Below the pieces are notes generated by a model. That model did not search any database. It saw only the letters and a program-made list of their open reading frames with translations, and was not told where the DNA came from. A stretch of DNA of 64,000 nt. It comes from an uncultured virus (IMG/VR IMGVR_UViG_3300017941_000006). Its lineage: Duplodnaviria > Heunggongvirae > Uroviricota > Caudoviricetes. Both the position numbers and the translations under genes were made by a program. Of this stretch, positions 1 through 24,205 are shown one piece after another; position 1 is the first letter of the stretch, and each line of letters starts with the position of its first letter. The DNA is taken from the IMG/VR virus record IMGVR_UViG_3300017941_000006; one strand, 5' to 3'.

Positions 1-131
1 ACTTTGATGGGGTGATTTTTATCTTTCAATTTTACAATGATAAATTGGCAGGCATACTGATTGGTGCCCCGGCCGTACCTCTTGAGCAGGAGAATAAAGC
101 CCCGCAGGAGAAAAGATACAGGGGGAAATAA
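1..131 (+). CDS. 3' end of an upstream CDS (partial, unknown function)
   Basis: Frame open from nt 3 (FDGVIFIFQFYND...RYRGK) to TAA at 129-131, 2 nt before the next ATG. Confidence 0.45.
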   Translation, partial: FDGVIFIFQFYNDKLAGILIGAPAVPLEQENKAPQEKRYRGK

Positions 132-133
132 CG

Positions 134-472
134 ATGAAAAAGAAACCAAAAAGTTTTTTAACCTTTGAAAGTTTTAGGGATAAGATAACTGTTATTTCAA
201 GCATCTTGCTTATATTTGGTATGCTATTTGCAGCATGGATGTTTCTCGATAATAGATATGCCCAAAAGAAAGTTGAACAGAAACTGGATTATGTAAAATA
301 TAGCCTGCAGTTTCAAATGAACAACGATAAGATTTCGACATTGATGTCTTTGTACCCAAAAATAGAAACTGCTGATCCAGTCGTAAAGCAGCAACTTCAA
401 ACTTATATGGATACAAAGTTAGAACTCGTCCGTAAGATGGAAGTTTTAGAAAAGTTGGGGATAGGTCTATAA
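134..472 (+). CDS. small membrane protein (single TM + helical C-terminus)
   Basis: Hydrophobic stretch ITVISSILLIFGMLFAAWMFL; stop overlaps the next start (TAATG). Confidence 0.6.
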   Translation: MKKKPKSFLTFESFRDKITVISSILLIFGMLFAAWMFLDNRYAQKKVEQKLDYVKYSLQFQMNNDKISTLMSLYPKIETADPVVKQQLQTYMDTKLELVRKMEVLEKLGIGL

Positions 473-3400
473 TGCCAAGGGTAAGGTTTGAACCTTTAAA
501 GATAACAACTCTCTACGAAGAGAAAGTTGCTCAAAGCGTTAAGGATCGCTATAAGAGTCACATTAATAGAGAATCCCTTCGTCTCGTAAGTAACATCACG
601 GATGACATGAGGGATAGGATTGCTGGATTAATGCACGAGGGTATTGACGAAGGTAGGTCAGTTAGTGCAACTGCCAGCACACTTCTTAAGACTGGTCTGG
701 ACAAAGGAGTTTTTAGATCGGCAAGACGAAGAGCCTATCTCATATCAAGAACTGAATTACATAGAGCAAGACAACAAGGAGCTTTTGATCTTTATAGAGC
801 AAATCATATTGATCTTGTTAAGTGGATTGCCATAGGAGATGAAAGAACATGCGATACGTGTGCACCCCGAAACAACCATGTTTATAGGCTTAGCGAGATA
901 GAGGGAGACTTACCGCCTATTCATCCAAGATGTAGGTGTAGAGTTGTGCCTTCAGATTTTCAACTCGAGATAAGTGTTAGACGTGATCGAAGAGGAAAGA
1001 TAATGGAAACAAGAATTTCTCCAACTCCTCAGAACTACAAATACTATGTGAGTCTTGACAGGAAGCCAAGAAGACGAGTTAAGAAGTCACTCGAGAAGGC
1101 TGTTTCAGTCAGAGCATTTACAAGGTACGTTCCAGGCAGAGGGTTTCAAAGATATAAACAGTTTCAAAGGGATGTAGCTGTTATTGATAAACCTGTTCCA
1201 AGGGATTTTTCATATGAGATAGCTAACTCTGGGGAAGATGTAGCAAATAAGATTGAGGAACGAAGAGAAGGAAAAGTTCGAGCTACTTATGCCGTTAATG
1301 CGGTTAGGGCTTGGAACATGGAAGCAAAAAATAAGTATCCTAACACTAATTATCTCGGTGACGTTGGCGTTAGAGAATGCTTACAAAATAGTTTGGATGC
1401 GGTCACAGAATCTTTAGAAAAAGGAGAGATAAAGAGGGGCAAGATCGAAATAGAACTTACTCCTCATAAAGAAAAGTACTCTGTCAAAGATAATGGAATA
1501 GGAATGTCCGATACAGACATTCGTGACAAGTTCCTTGCTCTTTACGGAACAGGGAAAGATATCAAAGGTAGATTCGGAGGATTTGGAATCGCTAAGGCTG
1601 TTATCTTGGCTCCTTCTGAAAGTTCACATTGGCAACTCAAAACAAGAGATAATTTCTTTGATGACAAGATGGCCTCTGCAAATGATCAGATTAAAGCCAT
1701 TCCAAAAATTCAAGGAACACAAATTGATGTTTGGGCAGGGGAGGATATTGTTAGCGAAGATGCCAAGAAATATGTGGAGACGACTGAAGTTCCTAAAAAT
1801 ATAGGTATAAGATTTAAGTGGGCACTTGATGATTGGGAAACTTTAAAGAATCCTTTTCTGAAATTAAAGAGTGAAGTAAGTCATACTACGGCAAAGGGTT
1901 CTGAAATAACAATGTCTTTCTTTCCAAGACCGCCATCGGAATACAGAAATCATATGATTTTGAGACTTGTTGACAAAAAGACCGGGGCTAAATTAACTCA
2001 GGCCATAAACCCTATATTTGGAGGTTTTAAAGGGGCTTTAGTTGTTGATATAGAAACAAGTGCAACCCCGGGCTCCGGTGGATATCCTCTTACCGATTCG
2101 AGAATGGGATTGAAGTGGGGAGAAGTTCAAGATTTTGTTAACACAGAAATAAGTCAAAGAACAAGAGAAAAGAAATCAGCTGAGCGAGTTGGTCAACAAG
2201 AGAAGTGGCTGGACTTACCGGAAGTTCCTGGCTGGAAAGATACTCTCGAGAGAATTAAAACAGATACAGGTTATGCATATCTTAAAGACACAATAGATAA
2301 AATTTGGCAAAAAGATTTTGTGTCGCAACATTTAAAAGGTATAGTATCAACAGATATAGGAGAACAACCTTTTACCTCTCTTGAAAATATAAAGATACTT
2401 AGGGATGTTGGCTTTAAAGGTTCGGATGGCGGGACTGTTGCTCAAGCAAAGTTGATGCTGGCATTTGAGTCTTTAGCTCAGATGTATTCACAAACTTTGC
2501 AAAAAGCTGGTATGCATTGTCCGTTGTTTGGATTTCATGCTCTGTTGTCTAAAGCTACATCGACCGGAGTGAGACTTGCACATTTTAGCAGACAAGAACA
2601 TACTTTAGGTTTGGATATTAAATCTTTTCCTAAGAGTGCTTTCGCAAGTCCGGTTAGTCTTGCCTTAGAAATGGTCAACACTATTCAGCATGAGTTCACT
2701 CATAATTGGAGGAGGGAACACGACGAAGGTTTCACTTCTCAACTTGGGCAAATACAAACGGTAACAGCGCCCTTATTTAATAGGGCTTTAGAGGTTGCAG
2801 GAGCGCTTCTCGGCAAGGATACCAGAATAACTATAGATACACCGCAAGGAATAGAAAAAATCAAGAGAAGCCATATTTGGACAATAGGAGAAAAACCAAA
2901 ACAGCCTGAATGGAGAGCAGAACTTTTTCAGTTGTACAAGGAGATAGGGGGAAAGTCAGGAGCGACTGCAGTTTACAAGATTGCTGAAAAATATAACATT
3001 CCAGAGAAACGTGTAAGAATGGTTCTTGCCGGATACAAAGCGGCACAAAGCCGAAAGGAGAAGAAAGATGTCACTAAATCCATTACAGAAAGCAGCGTTG
3101 GATTCCGAGGCCCCGAGAGAACAAGTCATCCAAGGTTTGTTATCCAACTTGATAAACGATTGCCTGATGAAAGCAGGGATCGATCCCAATGGGCCGATAG
3201 CAGGATCGATGCGGAAGCTGGGACAGGACGTTTGGGACTTGAGGGACGCTCTGGAAGAAGAGGGTTATTGGTAATAGAGAAAGCCAGATCTCACAAGTAT
3301 CTCAGAAAAATACCGAGAGGATCGGGAAGATATGAATATATCTATCAGAGACCAGATGTAGGTTTTCACGGAACCACTTCTAAGTTTTTAGAAACTATTC

Positions 3401-6400
3401 TTAAAGAAGGTTTAAGAAGTTCAAAAGATACCGGAGTTGCGTTGTATAGTGGAGAATCACAATTTGGCCCAAAAGCTAAGAGATATGGAGTTTATTTCGC
3501 AAAAACTCCGGAAAGAGCTTTTGGTATTGCTGAAGTGGCAACAAAAAAATTTGGTGGGAAGCCTGTAATTTTTATTGCTAAAGTTGATCCTAAAAAAGCA
3601 GAATCGGATGAAGATTTTGCAGTTGTCTTGGGTGATCTCTTTCGTGATATTTCTCGAGACAAACCTCCTCTTTTAACGGGTAATGAAATTAGGCAGCGTC
3701 TCAAGGATTATAAATTAAGCTATGGGGAGACCTATTATATACCGCAAGATACGCAATATAGATTGAATACGTTATCTGACGGAAAATTGGAACGTCTGTA
3801 CGATAATTGGCGGAAGGGAGGTTCTAAAGCGATAGATGAGGAGCTCACATCCAAAGATAGTTGGAAAATATTTGGGAGTGCTGCATTTCCTGGTGATAAG
3901 CCAGAAGATATCAGAGCTGCTATTTTTTGGGATTGGGCTGAACATAAATATACAAGAATAGGATCACCTTTTGAAAAGAAATTAGATAAAGCTTTAAGAA
4001 GGTTAAACTTAAGAGAAGTAACTAAACTTCCAGGGGCCCACGTTGTTGAAAATCCGGCCTTTATAAAAGCTTTAGAAGAGTTTGGATTCTTTGCGACATC
4101 TACCGGACTTTTGAAATCAGTTATGGGAGAAGATTTAAAGAAAGCCAGAAGCTATGTAAGATTCAGACATGGGAAGTATGAGCATGTTAAAGGATGGTCT
4201 GGAAAACCAAGATTATTTGATTTATCATCAGAGGACAAAATTCACCGTTATCTTCTTGACGCATCTTCCCCTGAAATAGAAAAAGCACTTCAAGTAGTTC
4301 AGGAAATACATGCTGTCGGTGGGCAAACTTTATTTATTGGAGGTTGCGTTAGAGATGCTTTGCTTGGCAAGAAGAGTAAAGATATCGATCTTGAAGTTTA
4401 CAATGTGAAACCGGAAGAAGTTCGAGCAATTCTTGACCGAGCCGGAAAAGTAGATCAGGTAGGAAAGAGTTTTGGAGTTTTTAAACTCTCTTTTCCCGGA
4501 ATGGAGGCTATTGATGTAGCCATTCCAAGAAGGGAAAGTAAAACTGGCAAAGGACATAAAGGATTTATGGTAGATCATGATCCTTCAATGACTTTCAAGG
4601 AAGCTGCGGGACGTAGAGATTTAACTATCAATGCTTTGGCATACAATCCTATAGAGGACAAGATAATTGATGAATATGGAGGCCTTCAGGACATTAAGGA
4701 CAAGATATTAAGAGCTACAAACCCAGAAACCTTTGGAGAAGATTCATTAAGAGTATTGCGAGTTATGAGATTCGCTGCCCAGTTAGAATTCTCTCCGGAT
4801 TTTAATCTTGCATGGCTTTGCAGGCAGATCGATCTGACCGATCTTCCAAAGGAGAGAATTTTTGGGGAAGTTGCTGGAATGCTTCTTAAAGCAAAGAGAC
4901 CAAGTATAGGATTAAGATTGATTCACATACTTGGAATTAATAAGATTCTCCCAGAGCTCGATGAACTTAAAGGAACAGAACAGGATGAGAAATGGCATCC
5001 TGAAGGGGATGTATGGGAGCACACATTATTGGCGGTAGACGAAGCCGCCAAGATGAAGAAGCAACTCGCAAATAATCAAGATAGACTGGTTTATATGCTT
5101 GGCGTCCTATGCCATGACATGGGAAAGCCAGAAACAACAGATGTTAATGAGGAGGGGAGAACAATCAGTCATGGGCATGACGAGATGGGAGCGAAGGTAG
5201 CTCAGGATTTTCTTGGAAGATTAACTGACGAGACAGATATTTTAGAAAGAGTTGAAGGTTTGGTAAGACATCACATGAGACCTACCTTCTTCTTTCATGA
5301 CAAGGTTCCGGATTCAGCTATTAGAAGACTTGCAAAGAAAGTCGATATTCCAATGCTCCTTATGGTATCGGCTGCCGATAAATCCGGTAGAGGGGATAAA
5401 GACATTGATCTAAGTGCCGAGAGATGGATGATGAGAAAGTTCAAGAATCTAAAACTCGCACATCCTGAAACTCTCGAGCCGAAAGTCATGGGAAGACATC
5501 TCATTCCATTAGGCATTAAACCTGGCCCGGAGATGGGAAGAATTCTAGACAAGATTTACAATGCTCAGCTGGAAGGTAAGTTTGAAACCACAGATGCTGG
5601 TTTGGAATATGCTAATCAGCAAGGATGGTTAAAGACAGAAGAAGATACTGTCATTAAAGCTGTTCCCGTTAAGAAACTTATAACAAGTAGAGGGAAAACT
5701 TTTCTCCATACTTACTATGAAAATAGAAGTGGCTTAGGCCCCGGATTTTTTGCAGGAGCCGAGCCTTTGGTTGTAAATAAAATGTCTTTCAAGCAAAGTG
5801 AGGATCAGAAAAGATGGGGAGAAGAAGTTGTTCTTGTTGATGTTTCTAAATTTGATGCTGAATGGAGTAAAGACGAAGGATTTTATATTTCTTCTTCTGG
5901 AAAGAATGAGATTAGCAATAGGAGAGAAAAATTCCAAGAGTTTCTCAAAACTGGAAAGCCTATTATAATGCCTTCGGTCTCTGTAAGAGATATCGGATCG
6001 AGGGGTCTTATAGGTTTTACAAATGGAAGACATAGATTTGCAGTTCTCAGAGATATGGGCTTTACAGAAATTCCTGTATCTGTGGATGCGAAATCTGCGA
6101 AGATGGCAAAGGAACTCTTTAAAGCCCCAAGTTTAAAGGAGAAACTGGAAGCGCAAAATTACTGGTGGAAAACCGTTGCCGGAGGAATCGAAAGCAAGTA
6201 TGAGGGGGTTAAAATAGTTTACGCAGGAAAGAAGACATCTGAAGGGTTTACCCATACTTATGCAGATGAGCAGTTCCAAGATGCAATAGATATGATTCCG
6301 GAAGAGCATAGGAAGCTTATTGATTCAGTGATTCTTGAGCCTGGGAGTGTATTGGGTGAAGATGGCAAAGCTGAATTTGGTCGTGTTTTTGAAGGAACAA

Positions 6401-7164
6401 GTTCTATTCACATATACCGTGGGGTTCAACTTCATGAGTATGGAACCAGTTTTGAAGAACAGTTTGCCCACGAAGTGGGACATTTGGTAGCACGAAAAGT
6501 GTTTGGAAGCATAGAAGCTGAGAAGTGGGGCGATGTTATTAAAGGAGAGAATCCTGTTTCTCATAGAGGTAGAGAAAATGCTGCAGAAGATTTTGCAGAA
6601 ACTTATTCTCTTTATCTTAATGATGAATTAAATAAGGATGATTATCCACAGAGATATAAAGCAATAAAGAATATAGTAGATAGGGCAAGGAAGCCCAGAA
6701 AAGTTTCAAAATTAAAATGGGAAGTCAAAGATTTGAAAGATGAGTTTGAAGAGAAGACTCCTTTGCTTCATACTACTTATGACAGATTAGCTGCAGGTGG
6801 GAAAGCTAAATATACTTCGAAGCCAAGTCCTGAAGCTGAAGCCGCTTTGAAAAAATTATTTGGGAAGGGTATGGTGATAGATATGGTAAAATCCAGAAAG
6901 AAGATAGTTGAAATGAAAAAATCCAGACTCGAGAATAAGTTTGTGCCTCACAAGATAGATGGAAAAGTTTCATGGGTTAAAGTTAAACATGGAGGCATGC
7001 TTGTTAAGAGTGCTAAACTTATCCAAGTCGGACAAGAGATTTTAGCCAAGTCTGGTTTAGCTACAATAACTGCGGTCGGGAAAGATGGAGTTACGGCAAG
7101 AACATCTAAAGGAGATAAAATACTTCTCCTTATGAAAGATGTTCTACCTTATGTAAGAGGATAA
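472..7164 (+). CDS. MuF (SPP1 gp7-like) head morphogenesis protein fused to multiple effector domains (polyvalent protein)
   Basis: MuF: RRAYLISRTELHRA, DERTCDTC, PPIHPRCRC. GHKL ATPase: ECLQNSLDA, DNGIGMS, GGFGIA, GTQI. Zincin HEFTH..EH. ART/Tpt1-like FHGT...ILKEGL...VYFA. Class II CCA/poly(A) nucleotidyltransferase GGCVRD, DIDLE, RRDLTINA, EDSLRVLR plus HD domain (HPEGDVWEHT, CHDMGKP). ParB/Srx-like NGRHR. Second zincin HEVGH...EDFAE. Confidence 0.9.
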   Translation: MPRVRFEPLKITTLYEEKVAQSVKDRYKSHINRESLRLVSNITDDMRDRIAGLMHEGIDEGRSVSATASTLLKTGLDKGVFRSARRRAYLISRTELHRARQQGAFDLYRANHIDLVKWIAIGDERTCDTCAPRNNHVYRLSEIEGDLPPIHPRCRCRVVPSDFQLEISVRRDRRGKIMETRISPTPQNYKYYVSLDRKPRRRVKKSLEKAVSVRAFTRYVPGRGFQRYKQFQRDVAVIDKPVPRDFSYEIANSGEDVANKIEERREGKVRATYAVNAVRAWNMEAKNKYPNTNYLGDVGVRECLQNSLDAVTESLEKGEIKRGKIEIELTPHKEKYSVKDNGIGMSDTDIRDKFLALYGTGKDIKGRFGGFGIAKAVILAPSESSHWQLKTRDNFFDDKMASANDQIKAIPKIQGTQIDVWAGEDIVSEDAKKYVETTEVPKNIGIRFKWALDDWETLKNPFLKLKSEVSHTTAKGSEITMSFFPRPPSEYRNHMILRLVDKKTGAKLTQAINPIFGGFKGALVVDIETSATPGSGGYPLTDSRMGLKWGEVQDFVNTEISQRTREKKSAERVGQQEKWLDLPEVPGWKDTLERIKTDTGYAYLKDTIDKIWQKDFVSQHLKGIVSTDIGEQPFTSLENIKILRDVGFKGSDGGTVAQAKLMLAFESLAQMYSQTLQKAGMHCPLFGFHALLSKATSTGVRLAHFSRQEHTLGLDIKSFPKSAFASPVSLALEMVNTIQHEFTHNWRREHDEGFTSQLGQIQTVTAPLFNRALEVAGALLGKDTRITIDTPQGIEKIKRSHIWTIGEKPKQPEWRAELFQLYKEIGGKSGATAVYKIAEKYNIPEKRVRMVLAGYKAAQSRKEKKDVTKSITESSVGFRGPERTSHPRFVIQLDKRLPDESRDRSQWADSRIDAEAGTGRLGLEGRSGRRGLLVIEKARSHKYLRKIPRGSGRYEYIYQRPDVGFHGTTSKFLETILKEGLRSSKDTGVALYSGESQFGPKAKRYGVYFAKTPERAFGIAEVATKKFGGKPVIFIAKVDPKKAESDEDFAVVLGDLFRDISRDKPPLLTGNEIRQRLKDYKLSYGETYYIPQDTQYRLNTLSDGKLERLYDNWRKGGSKAIDEELTSKDSWKIFGSAAFPGDKPEDIRAAIFWDWAEHKYTRIGSPFEKKLDKALRRLNLREVTKLPGAHVVENPAFIKALEEFGFFATSTGLLKSVMGEDLKKARSYVRFRHGKYEHVKGWSGKPRLFDLSSEDKIHRYLLDASSPEIEKALQVVQEIHAVGGQTLFIGGCVRDALLGKKSKDIDLEVYNVKPEEVRAILDRAGKVDQVGKSFGVFKLSFPGMEAIDVAIPRRESKTGKGHKGFMVDHDPSMTFKEAAGRRDLTINALAYNPIEDKIIDEYGGLQDIKDKILRATNPETFGEDSLRVLRVMRFAAQLEFSPDFNLAWLCRQIDLTDLPKERIFGEVAGMLLKAKRPSIGLRLIHILGINKILPELDELKGTEQDEKWHPEGDVWEHTLLAVDEAAKMKKQLANNQDRLVYMLGVLCHDMGKPETTDVNEEGRTISHGHDEMGAKVAQDFLGRLTDETDILERVEGLVRHHMRPTFFFHDKVPDSAIRRLAKKVDIPMLLMVSAADKSGRGDKDIDLSAERWMMRKFKNLKLAHPETLEPKVMGRHLIPLGIKPGPEMGRILDKIYNAQLEGKFETTDAGLEYANQQGWLKTEEDTVIKAVPVKKLITSRGKTFLHTYYENRSGLGPGFFAGAEPLVVNKMSFKQSEDQKRWGEEVVLVDVSKFDAEWSKDEGFYISSSGKNEISNRREKFQEFLKTGKPIIMPSVSVRDIGSRGLIGFTNGRHRFAVLRDMGFTEIPVSVDAKSAKMAKELFKAPSLKEKLEAQNYWWKTVAGGIESKYEGVKIVYAGKKTSEGFTHTYADEQFQDAIDMIPEEHRKLIDSVILEPGSVLGEDGKAEFGRVFEGTSSIHIYRGVQLHEYGTSFEEQFAHEVGHLVARKVFGSIEAEKWGDVIKGENPVSHRGRENAAEDFAETYSLYLNDELNKDDYPQRYKAIKNIVDRARKPRKVSKLKWEVKDLKDEFEEKTPLLHTTYDRLAAGGKAKYTSKPSPEAEAALKKLFGKGMVIDMVKSRKKIVEMKKSRLENKFVPHKIDGKVSWVKVKHGGMLVKSAKLIQVGQEILAKSGLATITAVGKDGVTARTSKGDKILLLMKDVLPYVRG

Positions 7165-7165
7165 A

Positions 7166-7378
7166 ATGGTAGACTGCCCAAAGTGCGGGAATACGATTGT
7201 AAAATCATATCCCGGCAATAAAGTAAAATTAAGGACTAACATAATTATATGGGAGTCTGGTGGAAAGGCCTTTTGCAAATGCAACAAGTGTCACGAGGAA
7301 GTTTGCATCCCTGTGTCTATTGAATTACCTACTGGAAAAAAATTAGGCCACGTAATTATTCAAGGAAAGAAAAAATAA
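7166..7378 (+). CDS. small zinc-ribbon protein
   Basis: CPKC...CKCNKC. Confidence 0.65.
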   Translation: MVDCPKCGNTIVKSYPGNKVKLRTNIIIWESGGKAFCKCNKCHEEVCIPVSIELPTGKKLGHVIIQGKKK

Positions 7379-7417
7379 TGATCATCATTGTGTTATATTT
7401 ATTAGAGATTTCATCTT

Positions 7418-7438
7418 GCCCTTTAAGTAGGGCTTTTT
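7418..7438 (+). terminator. possible intrinsic terminator
   Basis: gccct-ttaagt-agggc followed by ttttt. Confidence 0.4.
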
Positions 7439-7771
7439 GTGCTTATGAAAACAGAAATATTGAGAGGACGTAGATACAATATCTATCCCGATCGGCCTAA
7501 GAAGTGCCCGTTTTGTGGATATAGGATAGTATGGTCGAACGCAGATAGATGGAAATGTGGAAAATGCTATAAGAGCTGGGGCAAGAAAACTTTTCCAAGA
7601 CGCAAAGATTTAGGAGATCGTCCAAAGTGCTTATGCGGGGCTTCAAATCCTATATCGGAAGGAGTAAACTGGTTATGTACTGAATGCGGACGGCATTGGC
7701 TGAAGATTTATAGAATAGAAAAACAACTTACCCAAAGGGAGGTTTTAAGCGCTCAAGTTTTTGAAATATGA
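7439..7771 (+). CDS. tandem zinc-ribbon protein
   Basis: CPFC..CGKC and CLC..CTEC; each unit has a W-x-C motif. Confidence 0.65.
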   Translation: MLMKTEILRGRRYNIYPDRPKKCPFCGYRIVWSNADRWKCGKCYKSWGKKTFPRRKDLGDRPKCLCGASNPISEGVNWLCTECGRHWLKIYRIEKQLTQREVLSAQVFEI

Positions 7772-8103
7772 TTATCTACAAAGCTAAGAAGAAGTTATCC
7801 AAAGCTTTAAAAGGAAAGCCTAAATCTGAGGAGATGAAGAGAAAGATATCTGACTTTTTTAAGGGTAAATCTCTTTCGGAAGAGTTAAAGAAAAAGATGA
7901 GTGAAGCTCATATGGGCAAGCCTTGGAGTGAATTCAGAAAAGTTAGTTACTATCGTCATTCAGAAGCGACAAAGAAAAAGTTATCCGATGCCATTAAAGG
8001 AAAATGTTGTTCTGAAGGAGCAAAGAGAAAAGTGTCCGAATTTTGGGCAAAAAGGAGAAGAACCCAATGCGAAAATCGAAATCTGACAGTGGTTTGGAAA
8101 TGA
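7768..8103 (+). CDS. NUMOD3-motif DNA-binding protein (no nuclease domain seen)
   Basis: Repeated KGK-x-x-SEE-x-K-(R/K)K-(I/M)S units and HSEATKKKLS. Confidence 0.7.
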   Translation: MIIYKAKKKLSKALKGKPKSEEMKRKISDFFKGKSLSEELKKKMSEAHMGKPWSEFRKVSYYRHSEATKKKLSDAIKGKCCSEGAKRKVSEFWAKRRRTQCENRNLTVVWK

Positions 8104-8951
8104 TTAAAAGCTTTAAAATCAAGGAGTTACGAAAGTTTTTTGTAAGACGTATTGCAGCAGTTGGGGATTTACATTTGATGTCGAGGTATTCATTATTTCC
8201 TCCGGAGTTTGAGACAGAACAAGGAAATATATTTAAAGCAAGTCCGGGGCAACAACAAATATGGGAATCTTATCAAAACTTTCTTCATGTTTGTGATGAA
8301 TGGGAGGTCGATACAGTTCTTGTTGCATCTGATTTGGTTCATGGACAGAATGCAAAAGAAAGAGGAATGGGTCTGATAAGCACAAACATGAATGAACAAA
8401 TTCAGTTAGCAGAGCTAACTTTGAGGCCTCTCCTTAAAGGAAGGGAGTCTCACTGGGTTAGTGGATCGGGATACCATAACTCTGTTCAGGGAATGTATGT
8501 TGAAGAAGAACTTTGCACGAAGTTGGGAAAGGAGAAGGACATAACTACAAATTGGTATGGCACCGTAGCAAACTTAAAGGTTAAGCCTTTCGATAAGATA
8601 ATCAATTTAACTCACGGTGGTGGAAGAGCGATGTATTATCGAGAGACATTGGCTGCCAGAGAAATCATTTATGGTAAGGTAGCAGAAGTTAATCAAAAAC
8701 TTCCAAGAATTGATATGTATGTTCATGGTCACTTCCATTGGTATTGCTACATGCATCAAGGGAATGTCCATCATTTACAATTACCAGGATTTACTGCTTA
8801 TGAACCGGTTCCGATATTCACCCCTTCTTACACAAGGGCCCAGCCAGACATTGGGGGAGCTCTAATTATGTTTGATCAGAGCGGAAGAATCACGGTTTGG
8901 CACTTCTTGTATCCTCTTCCTCATATTAGCGATGAGGTGACAGGGATTTAA
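8043..8951 (+). CDS. calcineurin-like metallophosphoesterase
   Basis: GDLH, SDLVHG, GSGYH, THG, HGHFH motifs; real start may be ATG at 8100. Confidence 0.75.
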   Translation: MGKKEKNPMRKSKSDSGLEMIKSFKIKELRKFFVRRIAAVGDLHLMSRYSLFPPEFETEQGNIFKASPGQQQIWESYQNFLHVCDEWEVDTVLVASDLVHGQNAKERGMGLISTNMNEQIQLAELTLRPLLKGRESHWVSGSGYHNSVQGMYVEEELCTKLGKEKDITTNWYGTVANLKVKPFDKIINLTHGGGRAMYYRETLAAREIIYGKVAEVNQKLPRIDMYVHGHFHWYCYMHQGNVHHLQLPGFTAYEPVPIFTPSYTRAQPDIGGALIMFDQSGRITVWHFLYPLPHISDEVTGI

Positions 8952-8953
8952 AA

Positions 8954-9118
8954 ATGAAGATTACAGAAAAGCAAGCCGTAGTGATGTTTGATATTTTGAG
9001 GCACGCAATTCAGTTCGCAGGTGGATTTGCTGGATATCCCACAAAAACACTTATAGATGTCTACGATCAAATAATCAATCAACAGAGTAATGATCTTGTG
9101 GAGTTAGACAAGACATAG
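8954..9118 (+). CDS. hypothetical 54-aa protein (not in the ORF track)
   Basis: MKITEKQAVVMFDILRHAIQ...VELDKT*, starts 2 nt after the upstream stop. Confidence 0.5.
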   Translation: MKITEKQAVVMFDILRHAIQFAGGFAGYPTKTLIDVYDQIINQQSNDLVELDKT

Positions 9119-9135
9119 AGAGACACAAGGACATC

Positions 9136-9157
9136 CTTATATAATTAATAATGTAGA
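9136..9157 (+). promoter_or_regulatory. conserved intergenic motif CTTATATAATTAATAATGTAGA (candidate late promoter)
   Basis: 21/22 identical to 49170-49191; related copies at 9245, 31014 and 38930. Confidence 0.55.
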
Positions 9158-9188
9158 CTAAGAATACCTTAGAGAGACATAGAACCAG

Positions 9189-9222
9189 AAGCCAGGGGTT
9201 GTCTTGATCCTTGGCTTTTTCT
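9189..9222 (+). terminator. intrinsic terminator
   Basis: aagccagggg...tccttggctt hairpin followed by a T-run. Confidence 0.6.
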
Positions 9223-9273
9223 TCAAGGGACACATAAGCACATCATTATATAAATTAAAGTATAGGCAAATGT

Positions 9274-9579
9274 ATGTCAGTTGCTTTAGAGATAATCCGA
9301 AGGACAATTCAATCTGATCTGGATAGATTTAAAAAGGCAATCCAAGAAAAAGAATTAGAACATAAGAAACATCATGTCCATGATACGATAGATGATGTCA
9401 TGAAAAGAAACTTGGAAATGCAGGGCTATCCAGTAGACGATGTCATATCTCAAGATGAGGCTAAGTTCCAGTTAGATTATGATGCTCTTGAGAAGACGGA
9501 AGTGCCAAAGACTGAGTCTGGTGAACAACCCAAATCGGGAGCTGAAGTCTATGAAAAGTTCTTAGACTCAATGAAATAA
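9274..9579 (+). CDS. hypothetical head-associated protein
   Basis: 101-aa ORF directly upstream of the protease. Confidence 0.6.
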   Translation: MSVALEIIRRTIQSDLDRFKKAIQEKELEHKKHHVHDTIDDVMKRNLEMQGYPVDDVISQDEAKFQLDYDALEKTEVPKTESGEQPKSGAEVYEKFLDSMK

Positions 9580-9589
9580 AGGGAATTTT

Positions 9590-11137
9590 ATGGAAAAAGG
9601 CGGATGCGGAGCGATAGAGAGGGACTTTAGTTTTTGGATGCCTCTTGAAGTAGTTAAGGGGCAGAAGGGCGAAATGAGAATTGGAGGGATAGCTTCCGAT
9701 GAAGAGTCCCATGATCTCCAAGGTGAAAAAGTTTTTGTCGATGGTTTAGATACTTCATATTTGCTTCAAAGAGGTGCTTTTAATTGGGATCATCTAAAAG
9801 GCCCAGAAGATATACTTGGCGAGATTGATACTGTTCAAAAGCAAGAAAAGAAGCTTTATGTTGAAGGTTTTTTATATCCCAAAGTTAAGAAGGCCATTGA
9901 TGTATTCGATTTGATGCAATCTCTTAAAGAGTCTGGTAGTAATAGGAAGTTAGGGCTCTCCTTGGAAGGTAAAGTTAAAGAAAGAGATGAAAAAGATGCT
10001 AAGGTCATAAAAAAGGCCTGGATTAAGAACGTTGCCATAACATACAACCCAATTAATCAAGGTGCCTGGGTTGATATGATTAAATCGTTGGGAAACTTTA
10101 CTTTTGATAGTTGTGATAAAGACTGTTCCCGTTGTCCATTATGTGAAGCCAAAAAAGAAGTTAAATTGGAGCCGGTTAAGAAGGCAACAGCAACGCCTCC
10201 TTCTTTTATAGTTCAGGACGGTATCAAATACTATCCAAAAGATTTTGGTGAGTTAAAGAAAGCTGGCGAAGGTGGAACAAGTGGTTCCGGAGGAGCTGCT
10301 CCTGCACCGCCACAAAGTGGTGGTCTTGCTGCTGGACATGATAACCCGGCATCGTCCGGAGGGATTAGTGGTTCGGCTCTTAGGAGACAATCCTTAGATA
10401 AGAAAAAGAAAAAGACGACTTACGATGAAGAGCATGTAGGTCAGAAGGTTGAACCCGAGAAGTCCGAGACAGACAAGAAGAAAAAGAAAAAGATGACTAA
10501 GTCTGAAGTCTTTGAGTTTATTAAGTCTGAGGGAAATTCGGAGGATAGAGCTAATCTTCTTACTGATTTAGTATTTGCAATGATTGAAGTTGCACCGATC
10601 TTAGCAAAATCCAGCGAAGGAGCCAAGAAAGCTTGGATAACCAGACGTAAAGGTTTGATTTCTCTTGCTCAGCAAAAGAAAAAGAAGAAAGACCCAAGAG
10701 ATACCCCTGAATTTTGGGAAGAACGATACGGAAAGAAGAAAAAGGGTGCTGATGTTAGAACAACTGGAAAGGGAGTAACTCCAAGTCCTATTTTAAGTGT
10801 TAAAGAAAAGGAAGATTGGAAGAGGCATTCAAAGATGCCTAAGAAAGTACAGAAGGAAGCACCTAAAGAACTTGCTCCGACAGGGACAGCCAAACTTGTT
10901 GCTCATGAAATTCATAGAATAACTTCCATGTCTGATAAGGCCTTACTTAATCGAGCTACCAAGATTACCGATCCTAATAAAATGAAGAACTTTTATCTTG
11001 CTGCAAAGTTGAAAGGAAAAGGCGATTTAGCCGGAGCAATAATTACTGCCGGTGGGAGAATTGGTATTAACCCGCATGAATTTGGTACTAATGCCAAAGA
11101 AACTACTAAAGAATTCCGAAGACAACTGTCGGCGTAG
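9590..11137 (+). CDS. prohead (capsid maturation) protease with long basic C-terminal extension
   Basis: IGGIASDE..DLQGE, FNWDH, LYVEGFLY, LGLSLEG, NVAITYNPIN (HK97/SPO1-type protease motifs); position upstream of scaffold and MCP. Confidence 0.88.
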   Translation: MEKGGCGAIERDFSFWMPLEVVKGQKGEMRIGGIASDEESHDLQGEKVFVDGLDTSYLLQRGAFNWDHLKGPEDILGEIDTVQKQEKKLYVEGFLYPKVKKAIDVFDLMQSLKESGSNRKLGLSLEGKVKERDEKDAKVIKKAWIKNVAITYNPINQGAWVDMIKSLGNFTFDSCDKDCSRCPLCEAKKEVKLEPVKKATATPPSFIVQDGIKYYPKDFGELKKAGEGGTSGSGGAAPAPPQSGGLAAGHDNPASSGGISGSALRRQSLDKKKKKTTYDEEHVGQKVEPEKSETDKKKKKKMTKSEVFEFIKSEGNSEDRANLLTDLVFAMIEVAPILAKSSEGAKKAWITRRKGLISLAQQKKKKKDPRDTPEFWEERYGKKKKGADVRTTGKGVTPSPILSVKEKEDWKRHSKMPKKVQKEAPKELAPTGTAKLVAHEIHRITSMSDKALLNRATKITDPNKMKNFYLAAKLKGKGDLAGAIITAGGRIGINPHEFGTNAKETTKEFRRQLSA

Positions 11138-11668: not shown

Positions 11669-12364
11669 ATGGCAAAAGAAGAAGAAAAGAAAGAAGAAAA
11701 AAAGGAAGATTTGAAAAAGGTCGATGAGAAGATTGAAAAGAAAGAGCCCGAGATCACTGAGGACGAACTTAAGAAATCTCTCAAAGACTTAACTGACATT
11801 ATCAAGGCTGGACGTGCTCCCGTAGTTACCGAAGAAGAGGAAGAGGACGAAGACGAGGAAGAACTTGAAGAATCCTTTACCGGAAACTTTGAAGAAAACG
11901 AGACCATTGCGAAAGCTATTGAAGTGTCTGACTTCCTTGCCGATCTCGTAGAACAGACAGAGACATCTCTGGAAGCTGTTGGAAAATTGGTTAAATCACT
12001 TCAAAAATCTGAGGAAGTTTTCGATCAGAAGTTCGTTGATGCCCTTGGAAATATTTCCAAGAAATTTGACGACATGGATGCTCGTCTAAAGAAAATTGAA
12101 GATACACCAGTTGCCGCAGGACCAAAGACAATTCAGAAGTCGGTTCAGAAGATCGAAAAATCATTTACGGCTTCCGGGAAAGAGGTTGAAGGAACAGATG
12201 AGTTAGCCGCTTTACCGAAGAGACAGGTCATGGCCCTTTTGGAGAAAGCAGTTGCAGATAACAAGATCAAAGATTCAACGTTATTTGCTTACGAAGGATC
12301 GCCTGGCGTGTTTAAATTTAATAGTGAGGACGAAGAAATCCTCAAGTCCTATATCAAGAAGTAA
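11669..12364 (+). CDS. capsid scaffolding protein
   Basis: Acidic coiled-coil protein between protease and MCP with many phi-x-K-(S/A) motifs. Confidence 0.75.
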   Translation: MAKEEEKKEEKKEDLKKVDEKIEKKEPEITEDELKKSLKDLTDIIKAGRAPVVTEEEEEDEDEEELEESFTGNFEENETIAKAIEVSDFLADLVEQTETSLEAVGKLVKSLQKSEEVFDQKFVDALGNISKKFDDMDARLKKIEDTPVAAGPKTIQKSVQKIEKSFTASGKEVEGTDELAALPKRQVMALLEKAVADNKIKDSTLFAYEGSPGVFKFNSEDEEILKSYIKK

Positions 12365-12461: not shown

Positions 12462-13874
12462 ATGATCTCAATGAAGGACTACGAGCAGACTGATGGTTTT
12501 GGGATGGCTACCTGGGAAGAAGTTGCAGAGTTGAACAAGGCTCTTGCTGCGGGCTATGATATTCCTGCTACGTCAGGAGGTATCAGCGGTTCCGCTTTAA
12601 GGGTTGAGTCACTTGAATCTTCTTTGAAGGTGATCACTTACCAAATGCAACACATTAAGTTCTGGCAGAAGATCCCCAAATTGCCTGCTTATAGTACCGT
12701 TGAAGAGTACAACCAGTTGACTTCTTATGGTTCAGAAGCTGGTGCGTTTACTCCTGAAGGAGAACTTGGTGAATTCGATGATGCTACTTATCAAAGAAAG
12801 GTTTCATTAGTGAAATACCTCCAAACCGTTCGAAAAGTTACCCATCCGTTAACATTGGTTAGGGCAGCTCACGGCGACGTTGTAGGAAATGAAATCCGAA
12901 ATGGTATCATGTGGTTAATCGGAAAAATCGAGAACTACCTATTCTGGGGAAACAGCAAGCTGAGACCTACGGGTGCAGAGGGTTATGAGTGGGATGGAAT
13001 CAATATTTTGATTGATCCCTCTATGGTGATTGATGCTAAGGGAGAACCCCTTGGAGAAGACATCTTAGAAAGCGCTTCTAACACTATTGTTGAAAACTAC
13101 GGTTTTCCAACTGATATCTTTATAGGTACAAGGCCGTTGGCGGATTTAGCTAAAGTAATGTTCCCTAAAGAAAGGATAGTTGTTCCTTACAAGGAAGGTC
13201 AAGTTGGTGTGCCTTTAAATACCTTCGCTTCACAGGCTGGTATTTTGGCATTCAATCCTGACGTTTTCTTGAAGAAGAAGGCTTGTCCTGTTGCTGCCAC
13301 TTCAGGCAAAGCACCTACCGCACCCTCAAGTGTTACTATAGCACAGCGAGCAACTACAGGGCTGGGAGGCGATTGGACGAAGACTGGCAACGCTTATGGA
13401 ACTTACTACTATGTTGCAACATACGGAAACAGATTCGGAGAATCAGCTCCATGTGGTGTTCAGCACAATGCAAATGCTGCAATCACAGCCGATACTGATG
13501 AGATTACTGTAGCAGTTATGACAACTACCTATTCGATTGCTCCCGATTACGTGAACATCTATAGGTCAGTTGCCAATGATGCAACTGGTACAAGATATCT
13601 TGTTTATTCAGGCCCGGTTGATGATCCCGGAACAAGCACGACCGGTAAAGCATGGGTTGATGTGAACGCTATCTGTGCTAATTGCCATAAAGTATTCTTG
13701 GGCGAGTTAACTCCTCAAGTTATTGCTTTTAAACAGTTAGCCCCTATGATGAAGATGGATTTGGCGGTTGTTGAGCCAAGTGTCCGTTGGTTACAATTAC
13801 TCTATGGAGTACCTCAAATATATGCTCCTAAAAAGTGGATTATAATCAAGAACATTGGTGAAGCTTCTGTTTAA
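12462..13874 (+). CDS. major capsid protein (SPO1/Twort-like)
   Basis: ELNKA|LAAGY...GSALRVESL N-terminus, STVEEYNQ, IENYLFWG, EWDG, Ig-like insertion (YYYVATYGNRFGESAP), LAPMMKMDLA, WLQLLYG..APKKW..IKNI. Confidence 0.92.
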   Translation: MISMKDYEQTDGFGMATWEEVAELNKALAAGYDIPATSGGISGSALRVESLESSLKVITYQMQHIKFWQKIPKLPAYSTVEEYNQLTSYGSEAGAFTPEGELGEFDDATYQRKVSLVKYLQTVRKVTHPLTLVRAAHGDVVGNEIRNGIMWLIGKIENYLFWGNSKLRPTGAEGYEWDGINILIDPSMVIDAKGEPLGEDILESASNTIVENYGFPTDIFIGTRPLADLAKVMFPKERIVVPYKEGQVGVPLNTFASQAGILAFNPDVFLKKKACPVAATSGKAPTAPSSVTIAQRATTGLGGDWTKTGNAYGTYYYVATYGNRFGESAPCGVQHNANAAITADTDEITVAVMTTTYSIAPDYVNIYRSVANDATGTRYLVYSGPVDDPGTSTTGKAWVDVNAICANCHKVFLGELTPQVIAFKQLAPMMKMDLAVVEPSVRWLQLLYGVPQIYAPKKWIIIKNIGEASV

Positions 13875-16580: not shown

Positions 16581-18620
16581 ATGAGAAGGCAAGCGAATCA
16601 CATTCCGTTTGCAAGTAAAAGTCTCTCTTCTTTTAAAAGCCAGCCTATTCAACAAAGAACTCCTAAAAATGTTATTCCAGCTATTCTTATAAGTCGTCAA
16701 ACCGGGGGCATAGGCGACATGCTTATGATCACCCCTTCAATCAAAGCAATCAAAGAAGCCAATCCAGATACCCCTATCATCCTTAGCACCTCTTCTGCAT
16801 ATGGTGGAGGAAGAGGTGTTCTCATCGACATCTTGAAATACAATCCCTATATTGATAAGGTCATATCTGTTGATAAGATTGAAGAATATGACTTTAAAAA
16901 GACCTATGATTTTGGATCGGGGCGAGAAGTTGCAATAGAAGCACGAACTAATGAGAATAGAATAGACATATTTGCCAGACTTGCTGAACTTGAGCTTAAA
17001 GATAAACAGACGATTTATGTTGTATCCGAAAGTGAAAAGCAATGGGCAAAGAAATGGATCACAGATCGAATTCCTCCGGAGAGAAGGAAACTTATAGGTA
17101 TCCAGGTTCATACAACAACAGCCAAGCGTAATTGGCCTGAAGAAAAATCTCTTCTTTTAGCTTTTCAGATTGCTAATACTTGGAAGGATACTTCTATTCT
17201 TCTTTTTTATGAGGGATTAACAGAAATCAAATCTTCGACCTATGTTAATATCTATCCGATAGTCAGATTGCCTATTCGATGGGTTGCAGCTTTAATTAAT
17301 GAATGTGAAATTTTTGTTTCCCCAGATAGCGGGTTATTGCATATAGCTGGGGCTCTTAAAAAGAAAACATTAGGAATATTTGGTTCTATCAAACCCGAGT
17401 CCAGGTTATCTTACTATCCAAACGCTCAGGGAGTGTATTTGTATTATCCATGCAGCCCTTGTTGGTATAAGACTTGTGAAAATCACTACGAATGTTTAAG
17501 AAATATAGATACGAATCTCGTTTTAAACCGTGTTGAGAAGTTTCTCGGCAAACCCATTGCTCAGGATAAAACAATAGTTCTTCCTAAAAAACTCAAAAAG
17601 ACTAAGAAAAGTAAGGAACGTGTTCTTGTTATAAGAATGGGAGGAATGGGGGACATTGCTTGTCTATCTTCTTCCCTTAAAACCTTCAAAAAAGAAAATA
17701 AGGATAGCATTGTTGACTTGGCAACAATGCCGGAGAATGTTCATATACTCAAAGGGGTTTCATTTCTCGATGATGTCTTTTCTTTAAATGATATCCCAAA
17801 GAAGGTTCCTTATGATAGGACATTTGATTTAAGATATGGTGCGGAGGGTGAAAGAATAGGGGAAGGTAAATTGCTTTGGAATATCTATATGACCCAAGAT
17901 CGATCAGACATTTTTGATAGTCTAATGGGTGTCAAAGGGGAAAAAGAATTTGAAGTTGTAGTAGATGCAGACGCCCTTAAAACAATGAAGAAAAGAATAA
18001 AATCATTGAAAGGGAGGATAGTTCTTATTAATCCGACAACAAAAGGAGACGTAAGAGCAATTCCGGTGGAGTACATCGAGCCTCTGTGCGAGATGATTTT
18101 AGGTATTCCCAGTGAGCAGGAAAAGTCTGGTGATCTTCCTCTAAGGGAAGAGCTTAAGAAACCACGTGAGAAACTTTCAATTATTATAGCTGGTACAGAT
18201 ATGGGATGGGGAGATTATATAAGAAACCAAGAGCTTAAAGAAGATAAACGAATTCTCAATCTTTTGGGAAAGACATCCGTTCAGGAAATTGTAGCTTTGG
18301 TAAACCTTTCGGATATTGTTATTTGCCCGGATGCTGGACTTATGCACATAGCCGGAGCTCTTAAAGTTAATTGCGTAGCGATTTTTGGTAACATCGATCC
18401 TCAAACCAGAGTTAAATACTATCCTTCCGTTTTTCCATTGTATCCCAAGGGTGAATTTCCTTGTATTCCTTGTGGTGACATTCCGGCTGTAGCCGCTGAT
18501 TGTAAAAAGAGAGTTAGACCAACACACACCCCCGGGGCTGCTTGCATGAAATTGATCACTCCTGGGAGAATTTACGAAGCTGCCAAGGAGGTTTTAAATA
18601 TCAAAGATGGAAGACGTTAA
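16581..18620 (+). CDS. tandem double GT9-family (heptosyltransferase-like) glycosyltransferase
   Basis: Two copies of GG(I/M)GD...PD(S/A)GL(L/M)HIAGAL....(G/A)IFG with C-terminal Cys clusters. Confidence 0.85.
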   Translation: MRRQANHIPFASKSLSSFKSQPIQQRTPKNVIPAILISRQTGGIGDMLMITPSIKAIKEANPDTPIILSTSSAYGGGRGVLIDILKYNPYIDKVISVDKIEEYDFKKTYDFGSGREVAIEARTNENRIDIFARLAELELKDKQTIYVVSESEKQWAKKWITDRIPPERRKLIGIQVHTTTAKRNWPEEKSLLLAFQIANTWKDTSILLFYEGLTEIKSSTYVNIYPIVRLPIRWVAALINECEIFVSPDSGLLHIAGALKKKTLGIFGSIKPESRLSYYPNAQGVYLYYPCSPCWYKTCENHYECLRNIDTNLVLNRVEKFLGKPIAQDKTIVLPKKLKKTKKSKERVLVIRMGGMGDIACLSSSLKTFKKENKDSIVDLATMPENVHILKGVSFLDDVFSLNDIPKKVPYDRTFDLRYGAEGERIGEGKLLWNIYMTQDRSDIFDSLMGVKGEKEFEVVVDADALKTMKKRIKSLKGRIVLINPTTKGDVRAIPVEYIEPLCEMILGIPSEQEKSGDLPLREELKKPREKLSIIIAGTDMGWGDYIRNQELKEDKRILNLLGKTSVQEIVALVNLSDIVICPDAGLMHIAGALKVNCVAIFGNIDPQTRVKYYPSVFPLYPKGEFPCIPCGDIPAVAADCKKRVRPTHTPGAACMKLITPGRIYEAAKEVLNIKDGRR

Positions 18621-19590: not shown

Positions 19591-19593
19591 AAA

Positions 19594-20514: not shown

Positions 20515-21164
20515 TGGATTATAGTGAGGAAGGAGCATTTTTAGTAAATTTCTTTAAAGAGCATCCTGCTAAATACAAGTTCTTGGTAGATGTCGGGGCT
20601 TTTACTACGGATGGTTCTAATACCCTTAATTTACTCGAGCTTGGATGGTCGGGACTTCTCATAGAACCTATGCCAATAGAAAAGTATTACAGACCCTTGG
20701 TTGAAGCTTTAAAAGGAAATGATAAAGTTAAATTTTGCAATTTAGCAATTTCGGATTTTTGCGGAACAGCTGAAGGTTTTGAATACTATGACGGTGAAGG
20801 CGCCCTGGCTGGTCATAGTTCGATGATGAATGAAACATATGATACAGGTGCTCAGAAGATGGTTGTTCGCATACCAAAGAAGAAGTTTTTGTTAACTGTT
20901 TCTACATTGCCTAAAGTTCTTGAAGACTATAATGTTCCCCTTGATTTTGATGTTCTTTCTGTGGATGCGGAGGGAATGGATTTTAGGATTCTTAAGCATC
21001 TTTTTTTAAAAAGCAGCTATCGTCCAAAGATTATAGTAGTTGAATGGGGGAAAGATTTTCCCCATCTTCAAGATTGGGAAACTCTGGAATCCGATGATTC
21101 AATTTTTGATGGATATGAACTTCTGCTTCAAACACAAGGCAATAGAATAATTTTGAGGAAGTAG
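20514..21164 (+). CDS. FkbM-family methyltransferase
   Basis: VDVGA..GSNT, GWSGLLIEP, DVLSVDAEGMD, RPKIIVVE. Confidence 0.85.
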   Translation: MDYSEEGAFLVNFFKEHPAKYKFLVDVGAFTTDGSNTLNLLELGWSGLLIEPMPIEKYYRPLVEALKGNDKVKFCNLAISDFCGTAEGFEYYDGEGALAGHSSMMNETYDTGAQKMVVRIPKKKFLLTVSTLPKVLEDYNVPLDFDVLSVDAEGMDFRILKHLFLKSSYRPKIIVVEWGKDFPHLQDWETLESDDSIFDGYELLLQTQGNRIILRK

Positions 21165-21171
21165 AGCCGGG

Positions 21172-21912: not shown

Positions 21913-21946
21913 ACTCGTGGTAATAGAATAGTTGCGAAGAAATAGT

Positions 21947-24178: not shown

Positions 24179-24205
24179 AACTTGAAGCAATAAGGAGACT
24201 GTATA

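Follow-up and report, generated by a model that had tools for sequence, protein, structure and literature searches.

What is a gene that joins a minor head protein to a chain of unrelated enzymes doing among the capsid genes of a tailed phage? The question is raised by a 64,000-nucleotide stretch of DNA from an uncultured virus of the Caudoviricetes (IMG/VR record IMGVR_UViG_3300017941_000006; hereafter the window, meaning this whole stretch), which contains an open reading frame (ORF) of 2230 amino acids. A preliminary description had read the ORF as a capsid-associated polyprotein with a MuF domain (~472–1000), a GHKL ATPase (~1370–1740), an HEFTH zincin (2689), an ART/Tpt1-like domain (3361), a CCA-type nucleotidyltransferase (NTase) followed by an HD domain (~4300–5640), a ParB/Srx-like NGRHR domain (6022) and a second zincin with HEVGH/EDFAE (6469–6600), and had proposed an injected early-infection toolkit. 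We find that the product is anchored by MuF and belongs to the polyvalent proteins, a class that Iyer and colleagues described in 2017 (PMC5512222); it holds in one chain the disparate activities typical of that class (MuF, GHKL, WLM-like zincin, NTase and HD). It probably acts as a capsid-associated multi-enzyme protein and injected early-infection toolkit. In the account that we favour and consider fairly likely from its sequence features, this polyprotein of a Herelleviridae-like myophage would be packed in the head, where the prohead protease would cut it, and would leave together with the DNA, and its CCA-type NTase with HD domain (CCA-HD) would repair tRNA 3′ ends.

The frame is uninterrupted on the + strand from an ATG at 472 to a stop at 7162–7164, with its start overlapping the stop of a small upstream ORF. 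All motifs named beforehand lie within it at the positions given for them: HEFTH at 2689, FHGTT at 3364 and GGCVRD at 4339, and in the C-terminal third NGRHR at 6022, HEVGH at 6469 and ENAAEDFAE at 6574–6600. Its length and metagenome origin were the only grounds for considering an artefact, either an assembly chimera (named beforehand as a possible refutation) or several genes fused through sequencing errors, and no support for one was found. Two IMG/VR contigs, identical to each other although they come from separate samples, deviate from the window in 2 of 17161 bases and encode the identical 2230-aa protein, a further metagenome contig carries residues 1–169 at 100% identity, and relatives keep the same order of conserved parts (MuF, CCA-HD, C-terminal tail), so that an artefactual frame is hardly credible. 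The G+C content of the gene (0.39–0.40) equals that of its flanks.

The MuF domain was recovered above the curated cut-offs of both Pfam (Phage_Mu_F, PF04233, residues 50–158, 47.2 bits against 29.6) and NCBIfam/TIGRFAM (SPP1_gp7, TIGR01641, 47.9 bits against 39.65). The same holds for CCA-HD, with PolyA_pol at residues 1288–1414 (82.5 bits against 23), HD at residues 1514–1605 (38.7 against 22) and HDIG (30.7 against 27.6), together with a match to PHROG 2244 (tRNA nucleotidyltransferase) at 2e-72 and 30–39% identity to phage tRNA nucleotidyltransferases. The motifs of class II NTases (GGxVRD, DxD, RRD and EDxxR) are all present. Catalytic residues are invariant in 13 sequences, both in the NTase (G1290, G1291, R1294, D1295, D1304, D1306, R1381–D1383, D1424 and R1427) and at the metal-binding positions of the HD domain (H1517, H1548, D1549, H1601 and D1636).

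The best NCBIfam model for this region is NF008137 (multifunctional CCA addition/repair, 1e-51), and TIGR02692 (actinobacterial CCA enzyme, 2.5e-50) aligns over model positions 19–453 of 466. PcnB models match too (5.4e-32), and E. coli poly(A) polymerase structures reach about 2e-22, near the CCA enzymes, as would be expected if the NTase-HD instead tailed RNA, in the manner of a poly(A) polymerase or otherwise, and served host shut-off, perhaps by marking host RNAs for decay. However, the CCA models score higher and extend further, the best PcnB matches end at about residue 1474, short of the HD domain that follows the NTase intact as in multifunctional Cca, the PHROG 2244 match points to a tRNA nucleotidyltransferase, and in other phage giants the NTase is accompanied by 2H or AAA_33 domains. 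We regard an RNA-tailing enzyme as quite improbable and retain the CCA-type assignment.

That company was seen in an IMG/VR search with the CCA core, for which 51 of the 78 loci returned were examined. Besides this phage and the related locus L006, ten of them have the NTase in open frames of 1033–4072 aa; none of these ten giants contains MuF at E ≤ 1e-4, two also carry 2H/Acb1, and one carries an SF1 helicase, AAA_33 and HD. The 2H domains score equally well as Acb1-like, and nucleotide-signal degradation is therefore an alternative for them. The viral frame of 4072 aa (L014, 4562–16777), which combines an SF1 helicase (AAA_30, UvrD_C_2), AAA_33, PolyA_pol and HD, represents a second type of giant protein with a CCA-type enzyme, one that lacks MuF. 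Our reading of CCA-HD as a probable tRNA 3′-end repair enzyme rests on this company (2H; AAA_33 with HD) and on the chemistry of multifunctional Cca, which covers CCA re-addition and removal of phosphates. It also draws on a 2021 survey of jumbo phages by Iyer and colleagues, in which phage CCA enzymes are seen as agents of RNA repair (PMC7824862). Compared with the free-standing CCA-adding enzymes treated in that source, the class II NTase and the proposed restoration of tRNA 3′ ends are the same, whereas the present enzyme forms one module of a MuF head protein, flanked on both sides by tags that resemble a cleavage site (described below), and it would therefore arrive ready-made rather than be made after infection.

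A word-seeded search over the whole length of the protein, followed by a Pfam scan, returned 17 other proteins. Nine of them (P0002–P0010, 1227–2281 aa) combine Phage_Mu_F, PolyA_pol and HD, and three more have PolyA_pol and HD without MuF. The domain combination had at first gone unrecognised, a CCA enzyme on MuF above all; because nine of 17 relatives carry it, it is a family and not a one-off. BLASTP identities to relatives are 44–57% for the MuF N-terminus (residues 1 to ~230), 48–68% for CCA-HD (residues 1221–1740) and 32–52% for the C-terminal tail (residues 2134–2229). As judged from these alignments, the parts conserved across the family are the N-terminal MuF domain, CCA-HD and the C-terminal tail of ~90 aa, with variable cargo between them; the parts that vary among relatives include a 2H/Acb1-like phosphoesterase, ART-PolyVal, RadC/JAB, a PBECR2 nuclease and inteins in the NTase. 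In P0009 and P0010, inteins (LAGLIDADG or DUF559/Vsr-like) interrupt the NTase-HD region, and in L091 (9989–11707) the MuF domain itself is split by an insertion of ~380 aa.

No known family matched the C-terminal tail, which is also kept in relatives without CCA-HD: the metagenome members L087 (1032 aa) and L088 (1293 aa) retain MuF and tail but lack CCA-HD. In L087, CCA-HD and the ParB-like part are encoded by a gene of their own that immediately precedes the MuF gene, and in L089 the tail is a separate ORF. Among cultured phage genomes, 524 records matched the 2230-aa protein, none covering 80% of it, and among the matches listed (the best 40 of 524) only the CCA-HD part was matched.

Between the modules lie repeated tags, which together with the conserved tail are the organising features of the polyprotein; the preliminary description had noticed neither. 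An iterated linker hidden Markov model (HMM), seeded with residues 1219–1250 and run on 20 proteins, found 28 copies of an element of ~30 aa in 10 of them. Its consensus is [DE]-L-x-K-A-x-x-(V)-+-x-[FYH]-x-R-x-R-+-G-K-x-E-x-V-+-x-[YH], and its copies fall between Pfam domains (six in P0003). A second variant reads LEKARSHKYI+R-x-G-x-P-G-x-Y-x-Y-x-Y. The start [LIVM]-x-K-[A/S] occurs in 27 of the 28 HMM-found copies, and K1224 and A1225 of the canonical tag 3 are invariant in 13 proteins. In the 2230-aa protein, [LIVM]xK[AS] occurs 19 times, a count that was not attained in any of 2000 shuffles (6.2 ± 2.5). The splits in L087 and L089 suggest that genes of this phage clade divide at tags.

The tag start matches, at the level of sequence, the predicted maturation site of the major capsid protein (MCP) encoded downstream. 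In the GenBank record of Listeria phage A511, the cps mat_peptide begins 23 residues into the coding sequence, after DALK23, which pairs in alignment with K26 of the window MCP (ELNK↓ALAAGYD; ↓ marks the predicted cut), and the capsid proteins of L006 and of the cultured Bacillus phage YungSlug (Herelleviridae) keep LNK↓A. The L006 protease has a tag copy in its C-terminal part. In the prohead protease of the window (residues ~222–275), a stretch that follows ELKK↓A, LAAGHDNPASSGGISGSALRRQSLD, copies the MCP N-arm just past the predicted cut; such a copy is also present in L006, L088 and L089.

In the portal-to-protease interval, the tag signal also stands at the starts of whole proteins. Stand-alone ORFs of L006 begin with MNYVILEKS, MNYVVLEKA and MNFVILEKA, the first two continuing into the basic tag. 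In the DNA upstream of the polyprotein gene in this phage, stand-alone ORFs begin with MYKFVILEKS and SYIILEKA, an internal KSYVILEKA lies ahead of a GNAT domain, and the leader is also present in two small ORFs. Searching for the leader by regular expression gave five plausible sites in the 10 kb upstream; in the 64-kb window it gave the polyprotein's own site and two matches in ORFs of 15 and 19 aa only.

From these features we propose the following sequence of events. The MuF domain would take the precursor into the procapsid, where the prohead protease would cleave after the lysine of [LIVM]-x-K↓[A/S] at each tag; cutting within the capsid is probable because the tags resemble the capsid protein's own cut site. 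Each enzyme would be freed with a basic R-x-R-x-G-K-x-E-x-V-K-x-Y tag at its new N-terminus, and the pieces would leave the capsid with the DNA. CCA-HD would then restore damaged tRNA 3′ ends before phage gene expression, by re-adding CCA and removing 2′,3′-cyclic or other phosphates if it follows the chemistry of its family, while the other modules may act on proteins and nucleic acids of the host or of rival elements. In phage T4, internal proteins carry a capsid targeting sequence that is removed by the prohead protease. The T4 internal proteins and the ejection proteins of the giant phage SPN3US share with the system proposed here a short N-terminal signal ending at a prohead-protease site, head packing and ejection. 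The differences are that the predicted cut here follows lysine and not glutamate, that the signal recurs inside a polyprotein, and that a basic tag of ~25 aa would remain on the freed module.

The setting of the gene bears on whether the enzymes are virion cargo at all. Every large ORF of the window is on the + strand, and together they make up the structural module of a myophage: the prohead protease is 36% identical to that of YungSlug, the MCP is 47% identical to capsid proteins of Bacillus Herelleviridae, and sheath, baseplate and fibre genes follow the MCP gene. All four related loci (L006, L087, L088 and L089) preserve, wholly or partly and as far as each contig extends, the gene order polyprotein, orf7166, orf7439, metallophosphoesterase, protease, scaffold, MCP. 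MuF could nevertheless serve head assembly only, with the enzymes acting late in the producing cell, for example by keeping tRNAs functional; packaging is a step that we infer, the MuF gene does not adjoin the portal gene, and phages commonly have CCA enzymes that stand free, as in the 39 of the 51 loci with frames under 1000 aa. On the other hand, the location in the head module is conserved, the MuF fusion recurs in nine relatives, the polyprotein shares its cut-site-like tags with the MCP and with the protease's own C-terminal part, and the published logic for MuF fusions favours delivery (PMC5512222). A purely intracellular role therefore strikes us as improbable, and delivery of the cut modules from the head is the account that we carry forward.

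Several observations nevertheless count against that account. MuF genes usually adjoin portal genes. Here neither the window nor the 10 kb preceding it yielded a portal; a homologue lies ~15.5 kb upstream of the polyprotein gene on an IMG/VR contig (G002:C1:38166–39593; 46% identity to the YungSlug portal). One of the five proposed tags, tag 3, passes the linker HMM; those near 207, 935, 1727 and 2148 were called by eye, the HMM giving no match near 935, 1727 and 2148, and the loose [LIVM]xK[AS] motif also falls within folded domains, for example IAKA in GHKL motif III. The MCP cut site is taken from a single mat_peptide annotation, that of a distant relative with 37% identity across the aligned N-terminal part, a limited literature search having found no statement on the Herelleviridae capsid cut site. 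As to the cargo, the NTase scores 176.1 bits against the equivalog cut-off of 451 for NF008137 and 171.5 against 438.8 for TIGR02692, far enough below to make it a diverged relative and not an equivalog. Since CCA-, CC- and A-adding enzymes and poly(A) polymerase in the PDB all match at about 1e-22, the product is not readable from sequence. Finally, no tRNA genes occur in the window, and the two on contig G002, tRNA-Ile(UAU) at C1:2715–2786 and tRNA-Gln(UUG) at C1:3539–3612, already encode CCA; maturing CCA-less phage tRNAs is thus not an evident need, and a repair role is neither required nor excluded. The injected toolkit of the preliminary description keeps its place as the best available reading and fits the polyvalent-protein concept, while packaging and injection are steps that we infer and the portal is not adjacent.

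Features of the polyprotein gene and of the neighbouring head genes (positions in the window; ↓, predicted cut)
Feature	Position	Strand	Residues	Motif or sequence	Basis or remark
Whole polyvalent protein gene	472..7164	+	2230 aa		stop codon included
MuF / SPP1 gp7-like minor head domain	472..1089	+	1–206		PF04233, TIGR01641, relatives
Tag 1, degenerate	1090..1176	+	207–235	LEK↓AVSVRAFTRY...	by eye; linker HMM weak, independent E = 1.4
GHKL ATPase + transducer (S5-like) domain	1276..2169	+	269–566		HATPase_c_3, motifs, AF2, VIA
Wss1/WLM-like zincin	2287..2784	+	606–771	HEFTHx5H, residues 740–750	motif, AF2, VIA, WLM
Tag 2, variant B	3274..3351	+	935–960	VIEK↓ARSHKYLRKIPRGSGRYEYIY	variant also in L087, L088, P0004
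ART-like domain, unproven	3352..4128	+	961–1219	FHGTT 965, GVYFA 1006, DEDF 1046	weak Tpt1
Tag 3, canonical	4129..4218	+	1220–1249	DLKK↓ARSYVRFRHGKYEHVKGW	linker HMM E = 9e-16
Class II CCA-type tRNA nucleotidyltransferase + HD phosphohydrolase	4219..5649	+	1250–1726		PolyA_pol, HD, PHROG 2244
Tag 4, degenerate	5650..5727	+	1727–1752	VIK↓AVPVKKLITSRGKTF	by eye; [LIVM]xK[AS] start
PFIN-like (ParB-like) domain	5806..6123	+	1779–1884	FTNGRHRF	PF22162 via relatives
Second zincin, ATLF-like	6349..6666	+		HEVGH 2000–2004, ENAAEDFAE 2035–2043	motif, weak ATLF
Conserved C-terminal tail: tag 5 + small TAVGKDGVTAR domain	6871..7161	+	2134–2230	MKK↓SRLENKFVPHKIDGKVSWVKV	
Prohead protease, candidate processing enzyme	9590..11137	+	515-aa ORF		phrog_1028 4.5e-39
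Scaffold	11669–12364	+			between prohead protease and MCP
Major capsid protein (MCP)	12462..13874	+		predicted maturation cut ELNK26↓A27	phrog_752 8e-100

Between MuF and CCA-HD, the ATPase and the HEFTH zincin, described beforehand as two effectors, are one conserved ATPase-protease module of ~570 aa, each half of which was correctly identified. HATPase_c_3 matched residues 300–378 above its cut-off (28.4 bits against 25), and the GHKL motifs ExxxNxxD, DxGxG and GxxGxG are present and conserved, with E302, N306, D309, D340, G342, G344 and G369–G372 nearly invariant in a 51-sequence alignment, as are H740, E741, H744 and H750 of the zincin (HExxHx5H). An AF2 model of residues 245–900 reached a mean pLDDT of 85.3. 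Foldseek ranked Hsp90-family chains first (E about 1e-12, TM about 0.32), and the viral structure library gave viral Hsp90, rIIA and topoisomerase ATPases as neighbours. With VIA, a Foldseek-independent structure aligner, model residues 25–322, which include the transducer, matched GRP94 (Z 17.6), MutL (16.2), topo VI-B (15.9) and MORC3 (15.7), with SMCHD1 and ParE in the same group (Z 15.7–16.4), whereas model residues 362–527 matched Wss1 (5xbn_A, Z 7.9, root-mean-square deviation 2.9, 115 of 128 aligned; 5ln5_A, Z 7.1). These Wss1 values are modest, yet they cover nearly the whole target and agree with the motif and with the Pfam WLM matches, which lie below the cut-off here (E = 0.033, 14.7 bits against 26) and reach 3.3e-5 in the relative P0032. 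The first zincin is well supported because a confident fold model coincides with a nearly invariant HExxHx5H.

A HMMER scan with residues 230–1220 returned 586 proteins at E ≤ 0.001, 32 of them at E ≤ 1e-30; the strong matches align over residues ~254–827 and comprise stand-alone proteins of 603–903 aa as well as giants, the largest of 4377 aa; ART-PolyVal, or phage lysozyme with M23, accompanies the module in some of the giants. Overall, the module was found in giant phage proteins and in stand-alone proteins of 470–900 aa. In PADLOC, the short GHKL-WLM proteins gave weak GHKL-type matches only, and no family matched the 2230-aa protein. Fold and metal- and ATP-binding motifs are like those of the Wss1/SPRTN (WLM/SprT) metalloproteases and of the Hsp90/MutL/MORC GHKL ATPases, the difference being that both are fused here in one module. 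We know of no described family with this pairing, which recurs in hundreds of large metagenomic proteins without an assigned role.

The remaining modules are less certain. For the second zincin, the HEVGH and EDFAE motifs are located as described, and the assignment relies on them and on weak matches: Pfam ATLF fell below its cut-off (E = 0.018, 15.2 bits against 27.4), and language-model atlas neighbours were ATLF, Mx1 and M90 clusters at 0.94. No homologues were found by tblastn against 50,697 phage records.

With two HExxH domains in the protein, its own zincins (WLM-like, ATLF-like or both) might process it, leaving the prohead protease uninvolved and the tags as spacers or recombination joints. 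For polyvalent proteins in general, Iyer and colleagues have argued that cleavage centres on the MPTase domain as its hub, and they used HHpred to group this domain with lethal factor (PMC5512222). However, several relatives, P0005, P0002 and P0003 among them, keep tags without a Pfam zincin match, the tag start coincides with the predicted MCP cut site, and neighbouring proteins of a single domain, which have no modules to be parted, also begin with the signal. We therefore consider self-processing unlikely and continue to favour cleavage by the prohead protease.

The NGRHR domain stands as ParB-like through its relatives and is best placed as PFIN-like. No ParB family matched the 2230-aa protein at E ≤ 1 in Pfam, while the motif F[TIG][ND]GRHR[FY] is in place here and was found in 127 relatives in viral contigs, some of them small stand-alone ORFs (frames from 123 aa) and some within large ORFs. 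Of 59 distinct fragments, 43 were scanned, and 32 of these matched PF22162 (PFIN, plasmid fertility inhibition factor) at E ≤ 0.05, four above the 27-bit cut-off; the window's own copy reached E = 0.039 (14.8 bits). The G, R, H and R of the GRHR motif are invariant in six sequences. PFIN, which we take to be the Osa family, would tie the domain to the ParB/Srx fold through Osa. This fertility inhibitor is reported to contain a ParB-like domain with ATPase and DNase activity (PMC5512222). The PFIN-like (ParB-like) assignment is supported because of the PFIN matches in relatives.

An ART/Tpt1-like domain, in contrast, could not be established. The region has a candidate H-Y-E triad (H966, Y1008, E1047) and a match to Pfam Tpt1/PTS_2-RNA below the cut-off (E = 0.021); the one close homologue, P0171 (45% identical), matched Tpt1 (2.2e-4) and PARP (1.3e-3), both along the HGT strand, and atlas leads were PARP (16% of one cluster) and Arr. 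An HMM built from the ART-PolyVal (PF18760) domains of seven relatives gave no match to the region, hhalign of 6- against 8-sequence alignments matched it on the HGT strand only (probability 11%), and an AF2 prediction from a three-row alignment failed (pLDDT 45). Relatives in viral contigs were confined to this phage's own two contigs, and tblastn found two jumbo Stenotrophomonas phages, over query residues 10–98 only. In YungSlug, an 869-aa protein annotated 'PARP polymerase' (L003, 6094–8703) lies directly upstream of the portal and has, read by eye, an ART-like end with YHGTS...GIYLA; the linker HMM found no tag in it.

Set against the MuF-anchored subset of polyvalent proteins (PMC5512222), the protein shares the joining of many unrelated enzymes in one chain among late or virion genes, predicted injection, and a repertoire with MuF, zincin, ParB-like and, as a candidate, ART-like domains, with 2H in relatives. 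The main text of that work, to which the comparison extends, does not mention CCA, GHKL, Hsp90, WLM, Wss1, SprT or 'linker', so that the CCA-HD core, the GHKL-WLM module, the tags and the C-terminal tail appear as additions to it; the Pol-beta NTases that it covers are of the minimal, NTox45-like kind and belong to conjugative elements. Our literature searches found no paper on a MuF-CCA fusion. Thus the class is already known, and for the MuF-linked CCA-HD cargo, the GHKL-Wss1-like module and the capsid-cut-site tag system we found no paper, the 2017 supplementary lists aside.

If the proposed delivery is correct, the phage would bring in a ready-made tRNA 3′-end repair enzyme at DNA entry. 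Host systems aimed at tRNAs would thereby be countered ahead of all phage gene expression, and RNA repair would be added to what injected counter-defence proteins are known to do. A simple, testable rule for proteins loaded into phage heads would follow from the tag and cut-site system, in our view the most valuable lead from this locus; the system could also be used for loading chosen enzymes into capsids.

A broader version of this rule is possible, although we hold it only tentatively and think it less likely than not to survive in full. A short hydrophobic leader that closes with L-E/K-K↓A/S and in many cases runs on into the basic tag may be a portable capsid-cargo signal that marks whole proteins as well as polyprotein modules and directs procapsid packing and release by the prohead protease. 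The portal-protease stretch of ~24 kb would then be a cargo island of about a dozen injected enzymes (peptidases, GNAT, CCA-HD, GHKL-WLM and others) whose genes fuse and split at tags.

The distance from portal to protease is ~24 kb, of which we read the 10 kb upstream of the polyprotein gene (L002, 1–10000) and window positions 7165–9589. ORFs in this interval include C39, M14-like and papain-like peptidases, GNAT, SAM-decarboxylase-like and sugar-isomerase-like proteins and the metallophosphoesterase, and the hydrophobic leader with LEK[A/S] opens several of them; an ORF resembling NUMOD3 homing endonucleases (7768–8103) lies between the polyprotein and protease genes. Elsewhere in the window, an HNH endonuclease ORF (48782–49168) lies just upstream of the sheath gene. 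The region between head and tail genes (16581–31000) contains a GT9 heptosyltransferase, GT2-like glycosyltransferases, methyltransferases and a dCMP deaminase-like ORF, and may have a role in virion glycosylation or DNA modification. Two radical SAM proteins are linked to this block, the second at 37558–38919, and two large tail-fibre ORFs with collagen-like repeats lie at 33317–35629 and 40278–42860.

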